Source: Escherichia phage vB_VIPECOOM03
Sequence record: OQ721911
Strand: one strand, 5' to 3'
Length of the DNA: 64,000 nt
Shown: in pieces, positions 24,908 to 58,502 of the stretch
How the letters are laid out: the number at the start of each line of letters is the position of its first letter
Position numbering within the stretch: the stretch's first letter is position 1
The notes under the pieces: generated by a model
Database searches by the model: none
Told to the model about the DNA's origin: nothing
What the model saw: only the letters and a program-made list of their open reading frames with translations
Position numbers and translations under genes: made by a program

Positions 24908-24910
24908 CAA

Positions 24911-24930
24911 TGGGGACCGAAAGGTCCCCA
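24911..24930. terminator. Bidirectional terminator between gene 54 (+) and the alt cluster (-)
   Basis: TGGGGACC-gaaa-GGTCCCCA hairpin with T-run downstream on plus strand, at a convergent gene junction. Confidence 0.75.
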
Positions 24931-24935
24931 TATTT

Positions 24936-25226
24936 TTATTTGCGGAATGAAATAAAAGCAGCAACTGAAGCAACTAAACTGTCTTCAATATAAACTTCAA
25001 TTTTTACCGGAGCTTCTGATTCAAATTTACCTGTTACTACACCTTGGAAAATGCTTTCAGTCTGTTCTGGCTTTGAAAAATTTTCAGAAGGAAAAATTCC
25101 GAACTTTTTATCTGTTCCAAAAATTTTGATAAATTCATCATAAACTGCTTCATTAAAAGCATTATCAGCAGGAATAACGCCTTCAACTACAAGTTCTTGA
25201 CCTAAAAAGCGCAAAGAAGATTTCAT
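24936..25226 (-). CDS. Hypothetical protein (positional equivalent of T4 alt.-3)
   Basis: 96-aa ORF with GAGGAA RBS, preceded by a GTTTAC promoter-like element. Confidence 0.65.
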   Translation of the reverse strand: MKSSLRFLGQELVVEGVIPADNAFNEAVYDEFIKIFGTDKKFGIFPSENFSKPEQTESIFQGVVTGKFESEAPVKIEVYIEDSLVASVAAFISFRK

Positions 25227-25257
25227 TTTGTGTTCCTCATGTTATGTAAGTAAAATT

Positions 25258-25287
25258 ACTATAACACAACACGAGGGACTTGTAAAC
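25258..25287 (-). promoter_or_regulatory. Early-type promoter-like element (GTTTAC -35, 18-bp spacer, TATAGT -10), copy 1 of a repeated element
   Basis: Minus-strand GTTTACAAGTCCCTCGTGTTGTGTTATAGT; about 90 percent identical over ~55 bp to the element at 41000-41054. Confidence 0.5.
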
Positions 25288-27344
25288 TACATTTTGAACT
25301 TTTTAGACATTCCGTTGATGTTAACCAAAGAAGCCAAGATTTGAGAAACTTCGTTTTCCTCTTCTTTTGATTCTTCTACAAGGAATTGATTAAATCCAGC
25401 CATTGGACGAACTTCACCAGTTTCCATCAGATGGTCGCCATCATATACCGATTCTTCTAATTGTTCAGAAGGAGGAACGATTGTGCCTTCGACTAGATAC
25501 TTATTATAAGCAGTTTCTTTCATCATGTACGTACTCACTTTATTAATCTTCAGTAGAATTCCACGTGGTAGAATAATTTCAGCTTCTGATGGAAATCCTG
25601 ATAAATGACCTGGAACGATAACTTTGATTCGCTCAGCTCCTTTAATTACCATACCAACGCTAGTTTCAGCATCTTCATTCGCATAAGCAGAGCGACTGCC
25701 CATATGCATCAAATCTTCTGCGTCAACTGAACCTTCTCCTTCACCAGAAAATACTGCACCGGAATCATCTAGAGCCATATAGTTTTTACCATACTCACCG
25801 AAGATATTTGGTTTAAGCGATGTGGATACGAAGTTCTTGAAATAAAACATTTTATTTTCAATATTATGGCGTAAAGTTTTGAAAGTAACTTCTTGTCCAC
25901 GGTAAAGTGTAGTTCCTGGAGGAAGAACTGAACCTTTAGCAAAGGCAGAATCCATTGTCTCGATGTGTTTAATAGCTCGTTCCATATATTCTTCACGGGT
26001 AGAATCTGGTTTACCTAAAAGGAACGAGTTCATTTCAACATATGAATCTGCACAATAATCTTCAATTACATCAGATTCAGCTTGAGTCAGTCCTTTTGGA
26101 GTTACTTCGGTGCTTGCGTATTCATATGCCTGGGCGGCAGATTCATTAATCAATTTATAAATGCCATTCATGACAAATTGAATAATAGCTACCTTTTCAT
26201 CTGGCGTGGCTTTAGAACCTTTAACTAAATCATTAACAATTTTCTTAATAACATCAAAGCTGTTAGAAATATTAATATCAGAAAGATCACTTAAAATTTT
26301 ATCAGTTTTATAATCAAAAAATTCTTTATTCTTTAAATATTCTTGAGAACCTTGATATGTTATATCGCTCTGTAATTTAATAGATGGATCACGTAAACGT
26401 GCATGAGCCAATGCAATATGATTTCGGAAGCTTTCTAGTTCATAATCGTTAGATTTAAAACGAGAAGCGCTTCTCATACCACCTATAGCTCCTTTGCTGA
26501 AGTTTGAACCAATTTGAATAACGCCAGAGTTCATTGATCCTTCTGCTTTATATACCGGAACTTTAGATTCAAACTCTTGATATTTCTTAGCAGCGAAGCT
26601 ATCGCCCTGAAGTGAAGCATCAACAGTAGAATATTGAGCTTGTGCTGCTAATCGACGACTAATTTTAGTTTTCTGAATAACAGCTTGATCCGTGCGCTTA
26701 TCATTTTCTAAAGCAATAGAAGCAGCAACAGCAACAGCTTTAGGAACAGCATTACCCGTTTTAACGTCTACATAAACATCACCAACCTTTGATTCAACTT
26801 TTGTGAATAACTCAGTTGAAATAGGAGGTACACCTGGAATGTCTTCTAAATTGGCATTTTTACGGTAAACCATAATATATGCATACTTTTTATCGTAATC
26901 CCAGATTTCCTTTAAAAGAACATATCGACCTGCTCCTTTAGTACGTACTAAACGGTCGGCAATAACTTGCATTTGACGAGCTGCGCCGTTTGTTTTACTC
27001 TTTAGTACGCGGAATAAGCATGCATCAATTTTATACTGTTTCATTGTTTGAAGAGCAGTATCAAAAACCGCATTAATGACACCAATTGGGTTTCCACCCA
27101 AGTTTTTAAGTTTAACTAATGATAGTTTTTCATTGACACCTATCATTACGATATGCATCATTTTATCGCCTGGCTTAACGTTTTTATTTGTATCACCACC
27201 AGAGGTGTATGTACAAAATCTAAATCCAGGAAGCACACTTTCTTCACCGGCTTGAATAGCAAAAATTTGAGGTATTTTATGCTTAGGATTTAAGTTAACA
27301 ACCGGCGCCGAAGCGCCGTCAAATAATTCTGTAATAAGTTCCAT
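25287..27344 (-). CDS. Alt-like ADP-ribosyltransferase paralog (R-S-ExE motifs)
   Basis: 685-aa ORF; N-terminus MELITELFDG... closely parallels the adjacent alt; C-terminal region has YRGQ, FVSTSL and EAEIILPRG motifs. Confidence 0.85.
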   Translation of the reverse strand: MELITELFDGASAPVVNLNPKHKIPQIFAIQAGEESVLPGFRFCTYTSGGDTNKNVKPGDKMMHIVMIGVNEKLSLVKLKNLGGNPIGVINAVFDTALQTMKQYKIDACLFRVLKSKTNGAARQMQVIADRLVRTKGAGRYVLLKEIWDYDKKYAYIMVYRKNANLEDIPGVPPISTELFTKVESKVGDVYVDVKTGNAVPKAVAVAASIALENDKRTDQAVIQKTKISRRLAAQAQYSTVDASLQGDSFAAKKYQEFESKVPVYKAEGSMNSGVIQIGSNFSKGAIGGMRSASRFKSNDYELESFRNHIALAHARLRDPSIKLQSDITYQGSQEYLKNKEFFDYKTDKILSDLSDINISNSFDVIKKIVNDLVKGSKATPDEKVAIIQFVMNGIYKLINESAAQAYEYASTEVTPKGLTQAESDVIEDYCADSYVEMNSFLLGKPDSTREEYMERAIKHIETMDSAFAKGSVLPPGTTLYRGQEVTFKTLRHNIENKMFYFKNFVSTSLKPNIFGEYGKNYMALDDSGAVFSGEGEGSVDAEDLMHMGSRSAYANEDAETSVGMVIKGAERIKVIVPGHLSGFPSEAEIILPRGILLKINKVSTYMMKETAYNKYLVEGTIVPPSEQLEESVYDGDHLMETGEVRPMAGFNQFLVEESKEEENEVSQILASLVNINGMSKKFKM

Positions 27345-29464: not shown

Positions 29465-29472
29465 TATTTATA
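29465..29472 (-). promoter_or_regulatory. T4-type late promoter (TATAAATA on minus strand) for alt
   Basis: Plus-strand TATTTATA about 20 bp upstream of the alt start; Alt is a packaged late protein. Confidence 0.6.
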
Positions 29473-34185: not shown

Positions 34186-34263
34186 TTTATTCTCCTTTGC
34201 TTGTGTAAGATAATACTATCACAAAGGAACTATACTGTAAACAACTTTGTGCAATCTTTGGAA

Positions 34264-40149: not shown

Positions 40150-40499
40150 TTAGAAAGGTCCTGGATGTCTTCTGCAAACTTGTTGAAGGAGTTGTTGATT
40201 TGTTTTTCAACCAATCCTGGTTTATGAGCCACCACATCCGCCTTCTTTGCGTCTTTGCGCAGTTTTTCATTTTCACGCTCAATAGCAGCAATTGCCTCAC
40301 GATTTTTATTATTCATCGCATCAATATAATTATATTGAATTTTTAAATCATTTAATGCTAAAGCGTTTTCATTGGCCGTTTTTGTAATTTCTACAACAGA
40401 CGTTTCTAATCTTTCAATTTTACTTTTTAAAATTAAAGAAGTTCCGCCCAATGCAATTACAATTAATAACAAACCCGCTGTCGTATTACTTAATTGCAT
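40146..40499 (-). CDS. Inner-membrane spanin (i-spanin; pseT.3-type)
   Basis: 117-aa ORF with N-terminal transmembrane helix (AGLLLIVIALGGTSLIL) followed by coiled-coil-like periplasmic domain. Confidence 0.75.
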   Translation of the reverse strand: MQLSNTTAGLLLIVIALGGTSLILKSKIERLETSVVEITKTANENALALNDLKIQYNYIDAMNNKNREAIAAIERENEKLRKDAKKADVVAHKPGLVEKQINNSFNKFAEDIQDLSK

Positions 40500-40996
40500 A
40501 AAGTTTTAATAACCTCTACAATATCGTCTTGAGAAAGACCGTTAATTAAAATATGATGTTCAGCCGGAGATTTAGAAATTTTAAAGCATGCCTCAACATC
40601 TTCTGCCATATCTGATGCACTACGATTTGGATTACTAATTCCAAGACGATGTTTTCCCGTTAAAGGATTAACGATGATATAGCATTTACAGTTATTAATA
40701 TGAACATTAGGTTGAGTCTGATTAATGAACACATCACAATCATATTTTGCAAGCTGATTTTCTAAAAAGACTTTCATCTCCTCAACCGCATCAGGAAGCA
40801 TATCACGGGCTTGCTCAAGACGACGATTTCGATATTCTTTAATGGTCGTTTTCCGCTTGACTTGCTTAGCTAAATCTTTCTTAAGATCGGTGATATATCC
40901 AACTCGACGATTTCCTTTAAATACAGAAATCCCATCTGTAGTATCACCGTATGCTTCAACGACCATTTCAGTAGTAATAAGCTGTAAATCCATCAT
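40490..40996 (-). CDS. alc: Alc, inhibitor of host transcription on cytosine-containing DNA
   Basis: 167/168-aa ORF; MDLQLITTEMVVEAYGDTTDG... recognised as T4 Alc; ATG at 40993 is the alternative start. Confidence 0.9.
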   Translation of the reverse strand: MMDLQLITTEMVVEAYGDTTDGISVFKGNRRVGYITDLKKDLAKQVKRKTTIKEYRNRRLEQARDMLPDAVEEMKVFLENQLAKYDCDVFINQTQPNVHINNCKCYIIVNPLTGKHRLGISNPNRSASDMAEDVEACFKISKSPAEHHILINGLSQDDIVEVIKTLCN

Positions 40997-41024
40997 AAAG
41001 TCCTCATGTTATGTCAGTAAGACT

Positions 41025-41054
41025 ACTGTAACACAACACGAGGGACTTGTAAAC
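41025..41054 (-). promoter_or_regulatory. Early-type promoter-like element (GTTTAC -35, 18-bp spacer, TACAGT -10), copy 2 of repeated element
   Basis: About 90 percent identical over ~55 bp to the element upstream of the ORF at 24936-25226, including the RBS CATGAGGA. Confidence 0.5.
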
Positions 41055-41057
41055 AGC

Positions 41058-42645
<1,588 letters not shown>

Positions 42646-53352: not shown

Positions 53353-56300
53353 ATGGCCGAGATTAAAAGAAAGTTCAGAGCAGAAGACGGTCTGGACGCA
53401 GGTGGCGATAAAATAATCAACGTAGCTTTAGCTGATCGTACCGTAGGAACTGACGGTGTTAACGTTGATTACTTAATTCAAGAAAACACAGTTCAACAAT
53501 ATGATCCAACTCGTGGATATTTAAAAGATTTTGTAATCATTTATAATAATCGTTTTTGGGCAGCAACGGATAATATTCCAAAACCTGCTGGAAGTTTTAA
53601 TAGAATTCGTTGGAAAGCATTACGTACTGATGCCGTATATACAACCGTATCATCTGGACCATATCAATTAAAATCCGGAGAAGCAATTTCAGTAGATACA
53701 TCAGTTGGTAATGACATTGAGTTTAATTTACCACCTTCTCCGCTTGATGGAGAAACCGTAATAATTCAAGATATTGGTGGAAAACCTGGTATAAATCAGG
53801 TTAAAATAAATTCTTCAAATCAGAGTATTGTTAATTTTAGAGGTGAACAAGTACGTTCAGTTCTAATGACTCATCCAAAGTCACAGATGATATTCATTTT
53901 TAATAATCGTTTGTGGCAAATGTATGTTGCTGATTATAGCAGAGAAGCTGCGATTGTTACTCCATCGACTGCATATCAAGCACAATCTAATGATTTTATC
54001 GTGCGTAGATTTACTTCCGCTGCGCCGATTAATATTAAACTTCCGAGATTTGCTAATCATGGCGATATTATTAATTTCGTTGATTTAGATAAATTAAATC
54101 CACTTTATCATACAATTGTCACAACATATGATGAAACAACTTCAGTACAAGAAGTTGGAACTCATTCTATTGAAGGCCGTACATCGATTGACGGTTTCTT
54201 GATGTTTGATGATAATGAAAAATTATGGAGATTGTTTGACGGGGATAGTAAAGCACGTTTACGCATTATAACGACTAATTCAAACATTCGTCCAAATGAA
54301 GAAGTTATGGTATTTGGTGCGAATAATGGAACAACTCAAACAATTGAGCTTCAGCTTCCAACTAATATTTCTGTTGGTGATACTGTTAAAATTTCCATGA
54401 ATTACATGAGAAAAGGACAAACAGTTAAAATCAAAGCTGCTGGTGAAGATAAAATTGCTTCTTCAGTTCAATTGCTGCAATTCCCAAAACGCTCAGAATA
54501 TCCACCTGAAGCTGAATGGGTGACTGTTCAAGAATTAGTTTTTAACGGTGAAACTAATTATGTTCCAGTTTTACAACTTGCTTATATAGAAGATTCTGAC
54601 GGAAAATACTGGGTTGTACAGCAAAACGTTCCAACTGTTGAAAGAGTCGATTCTTTAAATAATTCTACTAGAGCAAGATTAGGCGTAATTGCTTTAGCTA
54701 CACAAGCCCAAGCTAACGTCGATTTAGAAAATTCTCCACAAAAAGAATTAGCAATTACTCCAGAAACATTAGCTAACCGTACTGCTACAGAAACTCGCAG
54801 AGGTATCGCAAGAATAGCAACTACTGCTCAAGTAAATCAGAACACTACATTCTCTTTTGCTGATGACCTTATCATCACTCCTAAAAAGCTGAATGAAAGA
54901 ACTGCTACAGAAACTCGCAGAGGTGTTGCTGAAATTGCTACGCAGCAGGAAACTAATACAGGTACTGATGATACTACAATCATCACTCCTAAAAAGCTTC
55001 AAGCTCGTCAAGGTTCTGAAACATTATCGGGTATTGTAACTTTTGTATCTACCGCAGGAGCTACTCCAGCTTCTAGTCGTGAATTAAATGGTACAAATGT
55101 TTATAATAAAAATACTAATAATTTAGTTGTTTCGCCTAAAGCTTTGGATCAGTATAAAGCTACTCCAACACAGCAAGGTGCAGTAATTTTAGCAGTTGAA
55201 AGTGAAGTAATTGCTGGACAAAGCCAAGAAGGATGGGCAAATGCGGTTGTAACGCCAGAAACGTTACATAAAAAGACATCAACTGATGGAAGAATTGGTT
55301 TAATTGAGATTGCTACGCAAAGCGAAGTTAATACAGGAACTGATTATACTCGTGCAGTCACTCCTAAAACTTTAAATGACCGTAAAGCAACTGAAAGTTT
55401 AAGTGGTATAGCTGAAATTGCTACACAAGTTGAATTCGACGCAGGTGTCGACGATACTCGTATCTCTACACCATTAAAAATTAAAACCAGATTTAATAGT
55501 ACTGATCGTACTTCTGTTGTTGCTCTATCTGGATTAGTTGAATCAGGAACTCTCTGGGACCATTATACCCTTAATATTCTTGAAGCAAATGAGACACAAC
55601 GTGGTACACTTCGTGTAGCTACACAAGTTGAAGCTGCTGCAGGAACATTGGATAATGTTCTAATAACTCCTAAAAAGCTTTTAGGTACTAAATCTACTGA
55701 AGCGCAGGAAGGTGTTATTAAAGTTGCAACTCGGTCTGAAACTGTAGCTGGAACGTCAGCAAATACTGCTGTATCTCCAAAAAATTTAAAATGGATTGTG
55801 CAGAGTGAACCTACTTGGGCAGCTACTACTGCGATAAGAGGTTTTGTTAAAACCTCATCCGGTTCAATTACATTCGTTGGTAATGATACAGCTGGTTCTA
55901 CGCAGGACTTAGAACTATATGAGAAAAATAACTATGCAGTATCACCATATGAATTAAACCGCGTATTAGCAAATTATTTGCCGTTAAAAGCAAAAGCTGT
56001 AGATAGTAATTTATTAGATGGTTTAGATTCACTCCAGTTCATTCGTAGGGATATTGCGCAGACGGTTAATGGTTCACTAACCTTAACGCAACAAACGAAT
56101 CTGAGTGCCCCTCTTGTATCATCTAGTACTGCTACGTTTGGTGGATCAGTTTCGGCAAATAGTACATTAACTATTTCTAATACTGGAACGGCAACTCGTC
56201 TGATTTTTGAAAAAGGGCCTCAAACTGGGACGAACCCAGCTCAAACGATGACAGTCAGAGTGTGGGGAAATCAATTCAGCAGTGAATCGGACACAACACG

Positions 56301-57230: not shown

Positions 57231-58346
57231 ATGGAAAAATTTATGGCAGAGTTTGGACAAGGATACGTCCAAACGCCATTTTTATCGGAAAGTAATTCAG
57301 TAAGATATAAAATAAGTATAGCGGGTTCTTGCCCGCTTTCTACAGCAGGACCGTATGTTAAATTTCAGGATAATCCTGTCGGAAATCAAACATTTAGCGC
57401 AGGTCTTCATTTAAGAGTTTTTGACCCTTCAACAGGAGCATTAGTTGATAGTAAGTCATATGCTTTTTCTACTTCAAATAATACTACATCAGCTGCTTTT
57501 GTTAGTTTCATGAATTCTTTGTCAAACAATAGACTTGTTGCTATATTAACTAGCGGAAAGGTTAATTTTCCTCCTGAAGTGATATCTTGGTTAAGGGGAG
57601 CAGGAACTTCAGTTTTTCCATCAGATTCAGTATTGTCAAGATTTGACGTATCATATGCTGCTTTTTATACTTCTTCTAAAAGAGCTATTGCATTAGAGCA
57701 TGTTAAACTAAGTAATAGAAAAAGCACAGATGATTATCAAACTATTTTAGATGTTGTATTTGATAGTTTAGAAGACGTCGGAGCTACGGGATTTCCTAAA
57801 AGAACATATGAAAGTGTCGAGCAATTTATGTCAGCGGTTGGTGGAACTAATAACGAAATTGCGCGATTGCCAACTTCAGCTGCTATAAGTAAACTATCTG
57901 ATTATAATTTAATTCCTGGCGATGTTCTTTATCTTAAAGCACAGTTATATGCTGATGCTGATTTACTTGATCTTGGAACTACAAACATATCCATTCGTTT
58001 TTATGATGCATCAAATGGATATATTTCCTCTACCCAAGCTGAGTTTACTGGGCAAGCTGGGTCTTGGGAATTAAAGGAAGATTATGTAGTTGTTCCTGAA
58101 AATGCAGTCGGATTTACTATATATGCGCAGAGAACTGCTCAAGCTGGTCAAGGCGGAATGAGGAATTTAAGCTTTTCTGAAGTATCAAGAAATGGCGGCA
58201 TTTCAAAACCTGCCGAATTTGGCGTCAACGGTATTCGTGTTAATTATATCTGTGAATCGGCTTCACCTCCAGATATAATGGTACTTCCTACACAAGCCTC
58301 TTCTAAAACTGGCAAAGTGTTTGGGCAAGAATTTAGAGAAGTTTAA
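57231..58346 (+). CDS. 35: Long tail fibre hinge connector gp35
   Basis: 371-aa ORF, size and position as T4 gp35. Confidence 0.9.
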   Translation: MEKFMAEFGQGYVQTPFLSESNSVRYKISIAGSCPLSTAGPYVKFQDNPVGNQTFSAGLHLRVFDPSTGALVDSKSYAFSTSNNTTSAAFVSFMNSLSNNRLVAILTSGKVNFPPEVISWLRGAGTSVFPSDSVLSRFDVSYAAFYTSSKRAIALEHVKLSNRKSTDDYQTILDVVFDSLEDVGATGFPKRTYESVEQFMSAVGGTNNEIARLPTSAAISKLSDYNLIPGDVLYLKAQLYADADLLDLGTTNISIRFYDASNGYISSTQAEFTGQAGSWELKEDYVVVPENAVGFTIYAQRTAQAGQGGMRNLSFSEVSRNGGISKPAEFGVNGIRVNYICESASPPDIMVLPTQASSKTGKVFGQEFREV

Positions 58347-58351
58347 ACTGA

Positions 58352-58375
58352 GGGAGCCTTCGGGTTCCCTTTTTC
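58352..58375 (+). terminator. Rho-independent terminator after gene 35 (copy 1)
   Basis: GGGAGCC-ttcg-GGTTCCC (one G-U pair) followed by TTTTTCTTT. Confidence 0.7.
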
Positions 58376-58478
58376 TTTATGAATCGGCTTCACCTCCAGA
58401 TATAATGGTACTTCCTACACAAGCCTCTTCTAAAACTGGCAAAGTGTTTGGGCAAGAATTTAGAGAAGTTTAAACTGA

Positions 58479-58502
58479 GGGAGCCTTCGGGTTCCCTTTT
58501 TC
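58479..58502 (+). terminator. Rho-independent terminator (copy 2, within duplicated unit)
   Basis: Identical hairpin plus T-run 127 bp downstream of copy 1. Confidence 0.65.

Follow-up and report, generated by a model that had tools for sequence, protein, structure and literature searches.

A repeated early-promoter cassette upstream of alc and alt.-3 in Tequatrovirus contains a hairpin predicted to gate their translation

Several genes of phage T4 (e, soc, 49 and I-TevI) are controlled by RNA gates, in which the Shine-Dalgarno sequence (SD) and/or the AUG of the gene lies within a helix in transcripts from upstream promoters, and the gene's own promoter is located in the DNA of the 5' arm, with the result that RNA from this promoter is free of the arm and is translated (PMC3014915). 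The gate of gene e has an approximately 100-fold effect on translation, and the gate structures are kept in related phages (PMC3014915). Here we describe a 54-nt direct repeat in a 64,000-nt stretch of Escherichia phage vB_VIPECOOM03 (sequence record OQ721911; hereafter, the window), a member of Tequatrovirus, the genus of T4. The two copies of this repeat precede alc and alt.-3 on the minus strand, and each combines an early promoter, a hairpin and the ribosome-binding site (RBS) in a compact cassette. As in the T4 gates, the promoter of alc and alt.-3 lies in the 5' arm of the hairpin, the SD is paired in the computed folds of the read-through RNA, and the structure is kept in relatives, being present in 20 of 22 alc leaders. 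In contrast, the internal promoter of the T4 gates is a late promoter (TATAAATA) and the gate blocks early translation, whereas the promoter of alc and alt.-3 is an early sigma-70 promoter. The predicted logic is hence the opposite one, with translation early and silence on later read-through transcripts. Neither alc nor alt.-3 is among the gate examples of the 2010 review (PMC3014915), and an early-promoter gate would constitute an addition to a known gate type. Earlier work on T4 promoters (Liebig & Rüger 1989; Miller 2003) may have covered these two already.

The cassette also bears a partial resemblance to two other described systems. In the modules of early promoter and stem-loop known as PeSLs, the stem-loop is a terminator located just upstream of the -35 element, and the PST/T4 promoter consensus is TTTACW-N17-TAYWAT (Arbiol 2010, PMC2839356; Comeau 2014, PMC4122927). 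Dozens of PeSL copies populate hyperplastic regions, where they flank indels, and recombination between modules has been documented (PMC2839356; PMC4122927). The cassette resembles a PeSL in being a compact intergenic module of early promoter, SD and ATG that precedes unrelated genes and fits the published consensus. Unlike that of a PeSL, however, its stem-loop begins in the promoter spacer instead of upstream of the -35 element, reaches the SD and lacks a T run, and only two copies are present per genome, with the same flanks among the matches listed (about 499 genomes). In E. coli, on the other hand, a pyrimidine-rich motif of sigma-54 promoters pairs with the downstream SD and silences the translation of read-through transcripts, from which the promoter's own transcripts escape (Levy et al., bioRxiv 10.1101/086108). 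The promoter-encoded anti-SD is common to both systems, but the sigma-54 insulators are CT motifs of 3-5 nt in host promoters characterized with library assays, whereas the cassette carries an 18-bp helix in a sigma-70 early promoter of a phage and is described here through computation and comparative sequence analysis.

Around the first locus, a 3-kb piece of the window matches Escherichia phage vB_VIPECOOM01 (OQ721909.1), also in Tequatrovirus, at 100% identity, the record positions being the window positions plus 96,000. A repeat search of the window located the two copies at 25234-25287 (copy A) and 41001-41054 (copy B), both on the minus strand, with 93% identity. The first 31 nt of the repeat (GTTTACAAGTCCCTCGTGTTGTGTTAYAGTA) occur exactly twice in the window at up to three mismatches, against 0.00 occurrences expected from 100 shuffles, and its 3' half likewise yields exactly two occurrences at the same threshold, with none expected by chance. 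These results bear out a first-pass annotation, made from the letters alone, that had reported a promoter-plus-RBS element of about 90% identity at two minus-strand loci. The loci that it gave (25227-25290 and 40992-41054) are the right ones, and their extent exceeds the shared 54 nt by a few bases. In both copies, similarity runs from the G of GTTTAC to just past the GAGGA of the SD. In copy A, that G doubles as the last base of the TAG stop codon of the upstream gene (25287-27344, minus strand), a second, full-length Alt-like ADP-ribosyltransferase paralogue according to Pfam. In copy B, GTTTAC begins 3 nt past the TAA stop codon of rnlA (gene 63; 41058-42182, minus strand). At each locus (alt paralogue to alt.-3, and rnlA to alc), the repeat is the entire intergenic gap and nothing more. 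The two T4 copies are identical to each other at all but 1 of their 54 positions.

Copy A serves alt.-3 (24936-25226, minus strand), which encodes a protein of 96 aa with Pfam domain DUF5498, and the unit is closed by a bidirectional intrinsic terminator detected by the terminator scan on both strands at 24910-24931. Copy B serves alc (40490-40996, minus strand), encoding the Phage ALC protein (Pfam PF17527), an inhibitor of host transcription. A short ELVVE/EMVVE motif near the N terminus made Alc and Alt.-3 candidate paralogues, but BLASTP returned no alignment between them at E ≤ 100 and the candidate was rejected; it follows that only the regulatory region is repeated.

By their sequence, both copies are T4-type sigma-70 early promoters joined to an RBS. 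The promoter scan identified in copy A the -35 hexamer TTTACA (25281-25286, with GTTTAC at 25282-25287), a 17-nt spacer and the -10 hexamer TATAGT with a TG extension (TGT+TATAGT, 25258-25266), and in copy B the -35 hexamer TTTACA (41048-41053), a 17-nt spacer and the -10 hexamer TACAGT, again with a TG extension (TGT+TACAGT, 41025-41033). The predicted +1 is in both cases the A located 7 nt past the -10 hexamer, at 25251 in copy A and at 41018 in copy B, as the usual spacing would have it. From these predicted starts, the leaders would measure approximately 25 nt at alt.-3 and 22 nt at alc, with the SD GAGGA positioned 7 nt and 4 nt before the ATG, respectively. Both copies present the features of the T4 early consensus, GTTTAC(N14)gtggTAttaT (SA20RB record citing Miller 2003; Nolan et al. 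2006), namely GTTTAC at -36 to -31, the 17-nt spacer, TGn and a TAnnnT hexamer. Within Tequatrovirus, little or no variation is seen in the -35, TGn and -10 elements. The UP region (-40 to -55) is A-rich at alt.-3 (CTAAAAAGTTCAAAATGTA) and A-rich only farther upstream at alc (AAAAAATTTATCCCAGAAGGATACTAAGCT), and at both loci it is coding sequence.

Data from relatives agree with this assignment. In RB69, early promoters have been predicted at both orthologous sites (Pe:125323 and Pe:138093; Nolan et al.), and in the time-resolved omics of T4 both alt.-3 and alc are classed as early RNA and early protein. In the same data, alt, alt.-1 and alt.-2 are middle RNAs and Alt is a late protein, while rnlA is an early RNA with a late protein. 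We found no genome-wide map of T4 start sites in the literature. The -35-like GTTTAC, the -10-like TAnAGT and the RBS listed by the first-pass annotation are all present in both copies, and its reading of the element as an early-promoter cassette is in agreement with the T4 early consensus and with the early expression of both downstream genes in T4.

The most informative feature of the element, absent from that annotation, is an internal hairpin that extends from the promoter to the SD. The spacer and -10 hexamer (beginning CCCUCGUGUUGUGUUA) are complementary to the leader and SD (ending in UAACAUGAGG), such that cassette positions 12-31, encompassing the spacer, TG and -10, pair with positions 36-53, encompassing the leader and the GAGG of the SD, around a loop of 4 nt. 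In the predicted folds, the 5' (anti-SD) arm occupies 25257-25276 in copy A and 41024-41043 in copy B, and the 3' arm, which runs from approximately +1 to the GAGG of the SD, occupies 25235-25252 and 41002-41019, respectively, the full SD GAGGA lying at 25234-25238 and 41001-41005 (all on the minus strand). The minimum free energy (MFE) of the hairpin is -21.8 kcal/mol at alt.-3 and -28.6 kcal/mol at alc (-23.0 kcal/mol at T4 alt.-3), with z values of -4.9 to -5.5 and none of 200 shuffles equally stable. The predicted +1 coincides with the first base of the 3' arm, and RNA begun there folds with an MFE of only -0.1 and -4.1 kcal/mol.

These folds define two predicted states of the RBS. At alc, the computed probability that the SD is unpaired is 0.01-0.02 in read-through RNA versus 0.70-0.76 in RNA from its own promoter, and the computed cost of opening the segment from SD to AUG, considering both loci, is 10.6-13.5 kcal/mol in read-through RNA versus 2.0-3.1 kcal/mol in own-promoter RNA. 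By thermodynamic RBS models, initiation falls tens- to hundred-fold when this cost rises by 8-11 kcal/mol. The modelled effect would be of the same order as the 100-fold of the T4 lysozyme gate, and these calculations indicate that probably only RNA begun at the cassette promoter is translated. The window scan found no terminator on the gene strand between the upstream genes and either cassette, and read-through is therefore expected. A motif search located a TATAAATA late-promoter motif upstream of alt (29465-29472, minus strand), a motif that is also annotated in SA20RB, and late transcripts from this position would cross both alt genes into copy A, a path along which the scan flagged nothing terminator-like on this strand; neither cassette contains this motif.

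Taken together, these data suggest that the cassette could operate as a self-contained early expression unit consisting of a sigma-70 early promoter, a short leader and the SD GAGGA, in which the spacer and -10 would double as the anti-SD arm. In RNA reading through from rnlA or the alt genes, the long hairpin would form and bury the SD, whereas RNA from the cassette's own promoter would start at the 3' arm, lack the 5' arm and leave the SD open. Translation of alc and alt.-3 would in this way depend on initiation at their own early promoter and be shielded from middle and late read-through. We assign a probability of roughly 60% to the complete explanation, that is, a self-insulating early cassette that was ancestral at alc, was transferred once to alt.-3 and has been inherited vertically since.

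To assess the conservation of the hairpin, we compiled alc loci from IMG/VR and reference genomes and retained 22 distinct leaders, all with GTTTACA, corresponding to 5 Tequatrovirus haplotypes and 17 other lineages. Alignment of 13 alc leaders with MAFFT followed by RNAalifold predicted no pairs, with the 3' arms misaligned; it was hence replaced by per-sequence folds anchored on GTTTACA, used for the comparison across genera together with a covariance model trained on 18 Tequatrovirus haplotypes only. A long promoter-spanning hairpin is present in 15 of the 17 leaders from outside Tequatrovirus, and it pairs the SD in 12 of these 15. With the Tequatrovirus haplotypes included, the hairpin is found in 20 of 22 leaders, 17 of which pair the SD with cassette positions 9-15. 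Positions 9-16, counted after the G of GTTTACA, have partners in the leader or SD in 95% or more of the 20 leaders with the hairpin (75% for position 13), with 2-4 Watson-Crick pair types per position and z values of -3 to -7. The 5' arms themselves are diverse (CCUCGUGUUGUG, CUCCGUUUAGUU, CCUCAUUUUGUUG, CUCCUCAG, CCUCUCAUUUUU and CCUCGUUUGUU), and each one has a matching 3' arm. The covariance model scores copy A at 83.1 bits and copy B at 87.5 bits, and it matches the alc leaders of other genera at 17-27 bits.

Variation within Tequatrovirus is slight and compatible with pairing, 98.5% of pair cells being standard pairs. None of the five outer-stem transitions disrupts the pairing, six pairs vary on one side only and remain paired, and the pair 27-40 occurs as U.G, C-G and U-A. 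The recurrence of complementary arms across genera indicates that the hairpin at alc is under selection, and the repeat as a whole is a real, non-random and functionally constrained regulatory element. At gathering thresholds, Rfam reported no family anywhere in the window, and only noise-level microRNA-like matches fell on the hairpin.

The alt.-3 leaders outside Tequatrovirus also have GTTTACA at the stop codon, but they contain a different motif and no anti-SD. Leaders of this different type were found in at least eight lineages, seven of them named genera (Mosigvirus, Dhakavirus, the VR25 group, Marfavirus, Gelderlandvirus, Kagamiyamavirus, Karamvirus and phage Ursula). The motif in their spacers is a covarying mini-hairpin of 4-5 bp with the loop (A/T)(A/T)GGA(A/T), and the difference between read-through and own-promoter opening costs in the RB69, IME08 and Marfa alt.-3 leaders is only 0-2.5 kcal/mol. 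The covariance model returned no match among the non-Tequatrovirus alt.-3 leaders searched. With alt.-3 leaders of another type in other lineages, the Tequatrovirus ancestor probably acquired its alt.-3 copy from alc, and the simplest reading is that an alc-type cassette replaced the alt.-3 leader once, in that ancestor. The hairpin would be ancestral at alc and the replacement would have occurred by ectopic recombination (gene conversion), with likely end-points in stretches that both leaders already had, GTTTACA(A) and (A)CATGAGGA, after which the alt.-3 copy would have been inherited vertically. The recombinational spread or duplication proposed in the first-pass annotation finds support here, in that the T4-type alt.-3 leader resembles the alc leaders of other genera and is unlike their alt.-3 leaders.

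Examples of the mini-hairpin include CCACA-AGGA-TGTGG, GCAC-AAGGAA-GTGC and CATCC-ATGGAA-GGATG (loci L003:1251-1310, L004:1097-1155, L005:802-863, L038-L050, L068 and L070-L072), and the motif recurs at RB69 alc as well as at further early promoters in both RB69 and IME08.

In a blastn search of either copy against 50,697 phage records, matches were obtained in 499 records at 997 places, amounting to two per genome, with no match outside Tequatrovirus; among the matches listed, each copy is flanked either by the alt paralogue and alt.-3 or by rnlA and alc. A metagenome scan added just 10 copies more, along with 2 unrelated chance matches (L059 and L066). We compared 14 alc and 16 alt.-3 copies from Tequatrovirus for distance and polymorphism statistics. 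The consensus sequences of the two loci are identical, and five polymorphic sites share their minor allele at both (hypergeometric P = 0.003, a value that is overstated in that it assumes all 54 sites free to vary when constrained sites cannot). Copies from the same genome present 2.83 differences versus 2.57 for copies from different genomes. Ongoing concerted evolution is not established by these figures, the within-genome distance being no smaller than the between-genome one, and one old transfer with purifying selection thereafter suffices. The cassette is a fixed two-copy feature of Tequatrovirus and shows no evidence of current mobility.

Several exchanges and rearrangements were observed around leaders of this kind. 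In VR5, the alc (L019:1447-1500) and alt.-3 (L038) leaders share an exact stretch of 32 nt, ACCTTACACAAACATGAGGAGAACATTATGAA, from approximately -3 to AUG+2. Other Dhakaviruses have an alc leader with a different 3' half, the VR5-type alc leader occurring only in two VR5 records, and VR5 looks like a second, independent leader exchange between alc and alt.-3. An unrelated Marfa-like gene (MINTFRKYGEM..., L076 and L079, TTACACAAACATGAGGAG match) has a leader, CCTTACACAAACATGAGGAGAACATTATGA, in which approximately 30 nt are identical to the Dhakavirus alt.-3 leader, while the Alc and Alt.-3 proteins of Dhakavirus and of Marfa-like phages each show only about 50-60% identity to the T4-type proteins; this leader identity suggests either cassettes common to these genera or very strong constraint. 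In Klebsiella phage Marfa, the covariance model matched at 21.3 bits (L005:8849-8902, minus strand) upstream of CPT_Marfa_220, which is unrelated to alc and alt.-3.

Comparison of T4 (L002:3034-3460) with window positions 25306-26996 reveals a 1,690-bp deletion in T4 within the second alt paralogue, a gene that is intact in the window phage and whose T4 remnants are alt.-1 and alt.-2. The deletion has a microhomology of about 9 nt, and on its right side it ends 19 nt upstream of the -35 element of the alt.-3 cassette. In VR25-type phages (L012:1425-1745; also L013 and L032), the junction between rnlA and alc is rearranged, with a terminator-like hairpin followed by an 88-aa open reading frame, with an N terminus that partly duplicates Alc, and by a full alc with an SD and no GTTTAC cassette.

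Several observations weigh against a self-insulating cassette as the complete account. In three lineages (L015, L020 and L029), an equally long alc hairpin ends 1-4 nt before the SD, and the RB69-type and L030 alc leaders lack the promoter-SD hairpin and present only a small spacer hairpin, indicating that SD occlusion is not the sole or universal role of the structure. Within Tequatrovirus there are no double compensatory changes, and the variants C12A, G29A and G40T break pairs, the last of them being that of the alt.-3 copy in the window. In own-promoter RNA of alt.-3, moreover, the SD pairs weakly with codons 3-4, with a computed probability of being unpaired of 0.23 for the window phage and 0.31 for T4, and the contrast between read-through and own-promoter RNA at this locus is visible only in the opening energies. 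The +1 on which these contrasts depend is placed by the usual spacing after the -10 hexamer. Temporal insulation is also less obviously needed at alc than at alt.-3, because rnlA RNA is itself classed as early. With regard to the molecule on which selection acts, the T4-type sense hairpin is 5-9 kcal/mol more stable than its antisense because of 2-3 G.U pairs in the stem, and this asymmetry favours a role at the RNA level. Across genera, however, the sense strand is more stable in only 12 of 20 leaders (p = 0.26), which leaves room for a role at the DNA level. Strand asymmetry was consequently discarded as a general discriminator between RNA and DNA, being clear for the T4 type and absent across genera.

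The spread of the cassette could alternatively be attributed to a mobile element of the PeSL type, a promoter-terminator module acting as a current recombination hotspot that shuffles neighbouring genes among T4-like phages. Such activity would be consistent with the probable movement of the cassette from alc to alt.-3, the independent 32-nt exchange between the same two leaders in VR5, the leader of about 30 nt common to Dhakavirus alt.-3 and the unrelated Marfa-like gene, the T4 deletion ending 19 nt from the -35 element, the rearranged rnlA-alc junction of VR25-type phages, the five polymorphisms common to both loci and the fit to the published PST/T4 consensus. Yet each genome holds exactly two copies across the 499 records, with the same flanks among the matches listed, and the self-comparison suggested by the first-pass annotation, run here on the 64-kb window, detected no third copy at up to three mismatches. 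In a PeSL, the defining stem-loop sits upstream of the -35 element and acts as a terminator, while that of the cassette lies over the promoter, reaches the SD and lacks a T run, and the distances of 2.83 within and 2.57 between genomes do not point to homogenisation in progress. Through a crossover between the two direct repeats, furthermore, 15.8 kb would be lost, including the genes for DNA ligase and gp31, both of which are essential in T4. We therefore regard current mobility of this type as unlikely. The promoter-associated recombination hotspot envisaged in the first-pass annotation fares no better: the comparison of flanking genes in relatives that it proposed yields the same neighbours at all the matches listed, an outcome that the annotation itself had named as telling against the idea.

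A different proposal is that the hairpin serves the upstream transcripts, whether as a terminator or attenuator, as a site of RNase processing or protection, or as a stabiliser of the alt and rnlA 3' ends, its overlap with the SD being incidental. The SA20RB record (OL960581.1; L052:17026-17075) does label the alt.-3 hairpin as a rho-independent terminator (WebGeSTer), but no T run follows either hairpin (GGAACACAAAAUG, GGACUUUAUGAUGG) and our terminator scan flags neither of them, though it does pick up the true terminator past alt.-3. Intrinsic termination was rejected on these grounds, and the lack of a T run makes the SA20RB label probably a mis-annotation. The three alc lineages in which the hairpin leaves out the SD are in line with an upstream role, as are other early promoters of the window with significant -10-flanking hairpins that do not touch the SD, and RNA secondary structure is known from the literature to shield GGAG sites from cleavage by RegB. 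Against this stands the precision of the overlap, the stem covering exactly the GAGG or GGAG of the SD in 17 of 22 alc leaders despite differing arms, and a purely upstream role appears doubtful to us. Conservation might instead act on the DNA, through equal promoter strength and timing (e.g. with Alt- or ModA-modified RNA polymerase) or a protein-binding or cruciform site, with the RNA hairpin as a by-product. The near-invariance of the -35, TGn and -10 elements within the genus, the reported dependence of Alt stimulation on promoter sequence outside the core elements and the lack of cross-genus strand asymmetry would all be compatible with such selection. Spacer sequence, however, varies across genera while its complementarity to the leader is kept, which points to pairing rather than to a fixed DNA site; the 2-3 G.U pairs of the T4-type stem would turn into mismatches in the opposite strand or a cruciform, and the repeat continues past the polymerase-read promoter, through the transcribed leader to the SD. 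An explanation confined to DNA is accordingly quite improbable. Least probable of all is a neutral relic, in which a chance intergenic duplication remains similar because the genus is young and the hairpin is a fortuitous palindrome. The divergence between paralogous copies (about 5%) is of the same order as that between orthologous copies (3.4-5.4%) and double compensatory changes are absent within the genus, as a relic would allow, but the hairpin is far more stable than shuffled controls, including in the alc leaders of other genera, the same architecture occurs at alc in many genera with different arm sequences, and the positions that vary within the genus lie in the loop or preserve pairing.

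Elements of this architecture are not restricted to the two cassettes. Among the gene-strand GTTTAC promoters of the window, 5 of 7 have significant promoter-spanning hairpins, and at the promoter at 34241 the SD is buried too. When 25 such promoters from four phages were considered, 9 presented complementarity between spacer and leader at p < 0.05, against approximately 1.25 expected. We tentatively propose, at somewhat less than even odds, that Straboviridae harbor a class of self-insulating early cassettes with a spacer-encoded anti-SD that is kept at alc across many genera. Such cassettes would be transplantable by gene conversion, at least twice between alc and alt.-3 (in the Tequatrovirus ancestor and in VR5) and possibly between genera (as in the leader common to Dhakavirus and the Marfa-like gene).

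Other early promoters of the window fold differently. Those on the minus strand starting from 49272, 37729 and approximately 33850 present stems of 6-8 bp that flank the -10 element, with the -10 in the loop and the SD free, as exemplified by GGUAGAG...CUCUACC and by GGUACAGG...CCUGUACC, of which at least the latter is kept in RB69 and IME08. One public record labels a -10-flanking hairpin of this kind as a terminator overlapping a promoter. In the alt.-3 leader of Kosakonia phage 305 (L069:100-175), the spacer sequence GAAUGAACG is complementary to the start of the coding sequence, AUGCGUUCAUUC, and a similar pairing may there be aimed at the start codon instead of the SD. Two further sets of repeats were observed in the window, a perfect-register tandem duplication of 127 nt with 97% identity at 58244-58497 and three 68-nt repeats of 66-71% identity, spaced by 120 and 483 nt, at 54754-55424, the latter presumably within structural genes.

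Beyond the two loci, the cassette has consequences for annotation and for practical use. In automated annotation, the hairpin at alt.-3 has already been labelled a terminator, probably wrongly, and a compact module of 54 nt that combines promoter, insulator and RBS would be a useful part for phage engineers. As the cassette is present in T4 itself, the proposed gate is directly testable with standard tools. If the proposal is true, the well-known late-promoter gates of T4 (those of e, soc, 49 and I-TevI) gain an early-promoter counterpart, and a dense genome without intergenic terminators can hold Alc and Alt.-3 strictly early despite middle and late read-through. The probable transfer from alc to alt.-3 would, furthermore, provide a clean natural case of a regulatory cassette that moved between genes and was then fixed genus-wide, the elementary step of the PeSL shuffling model.

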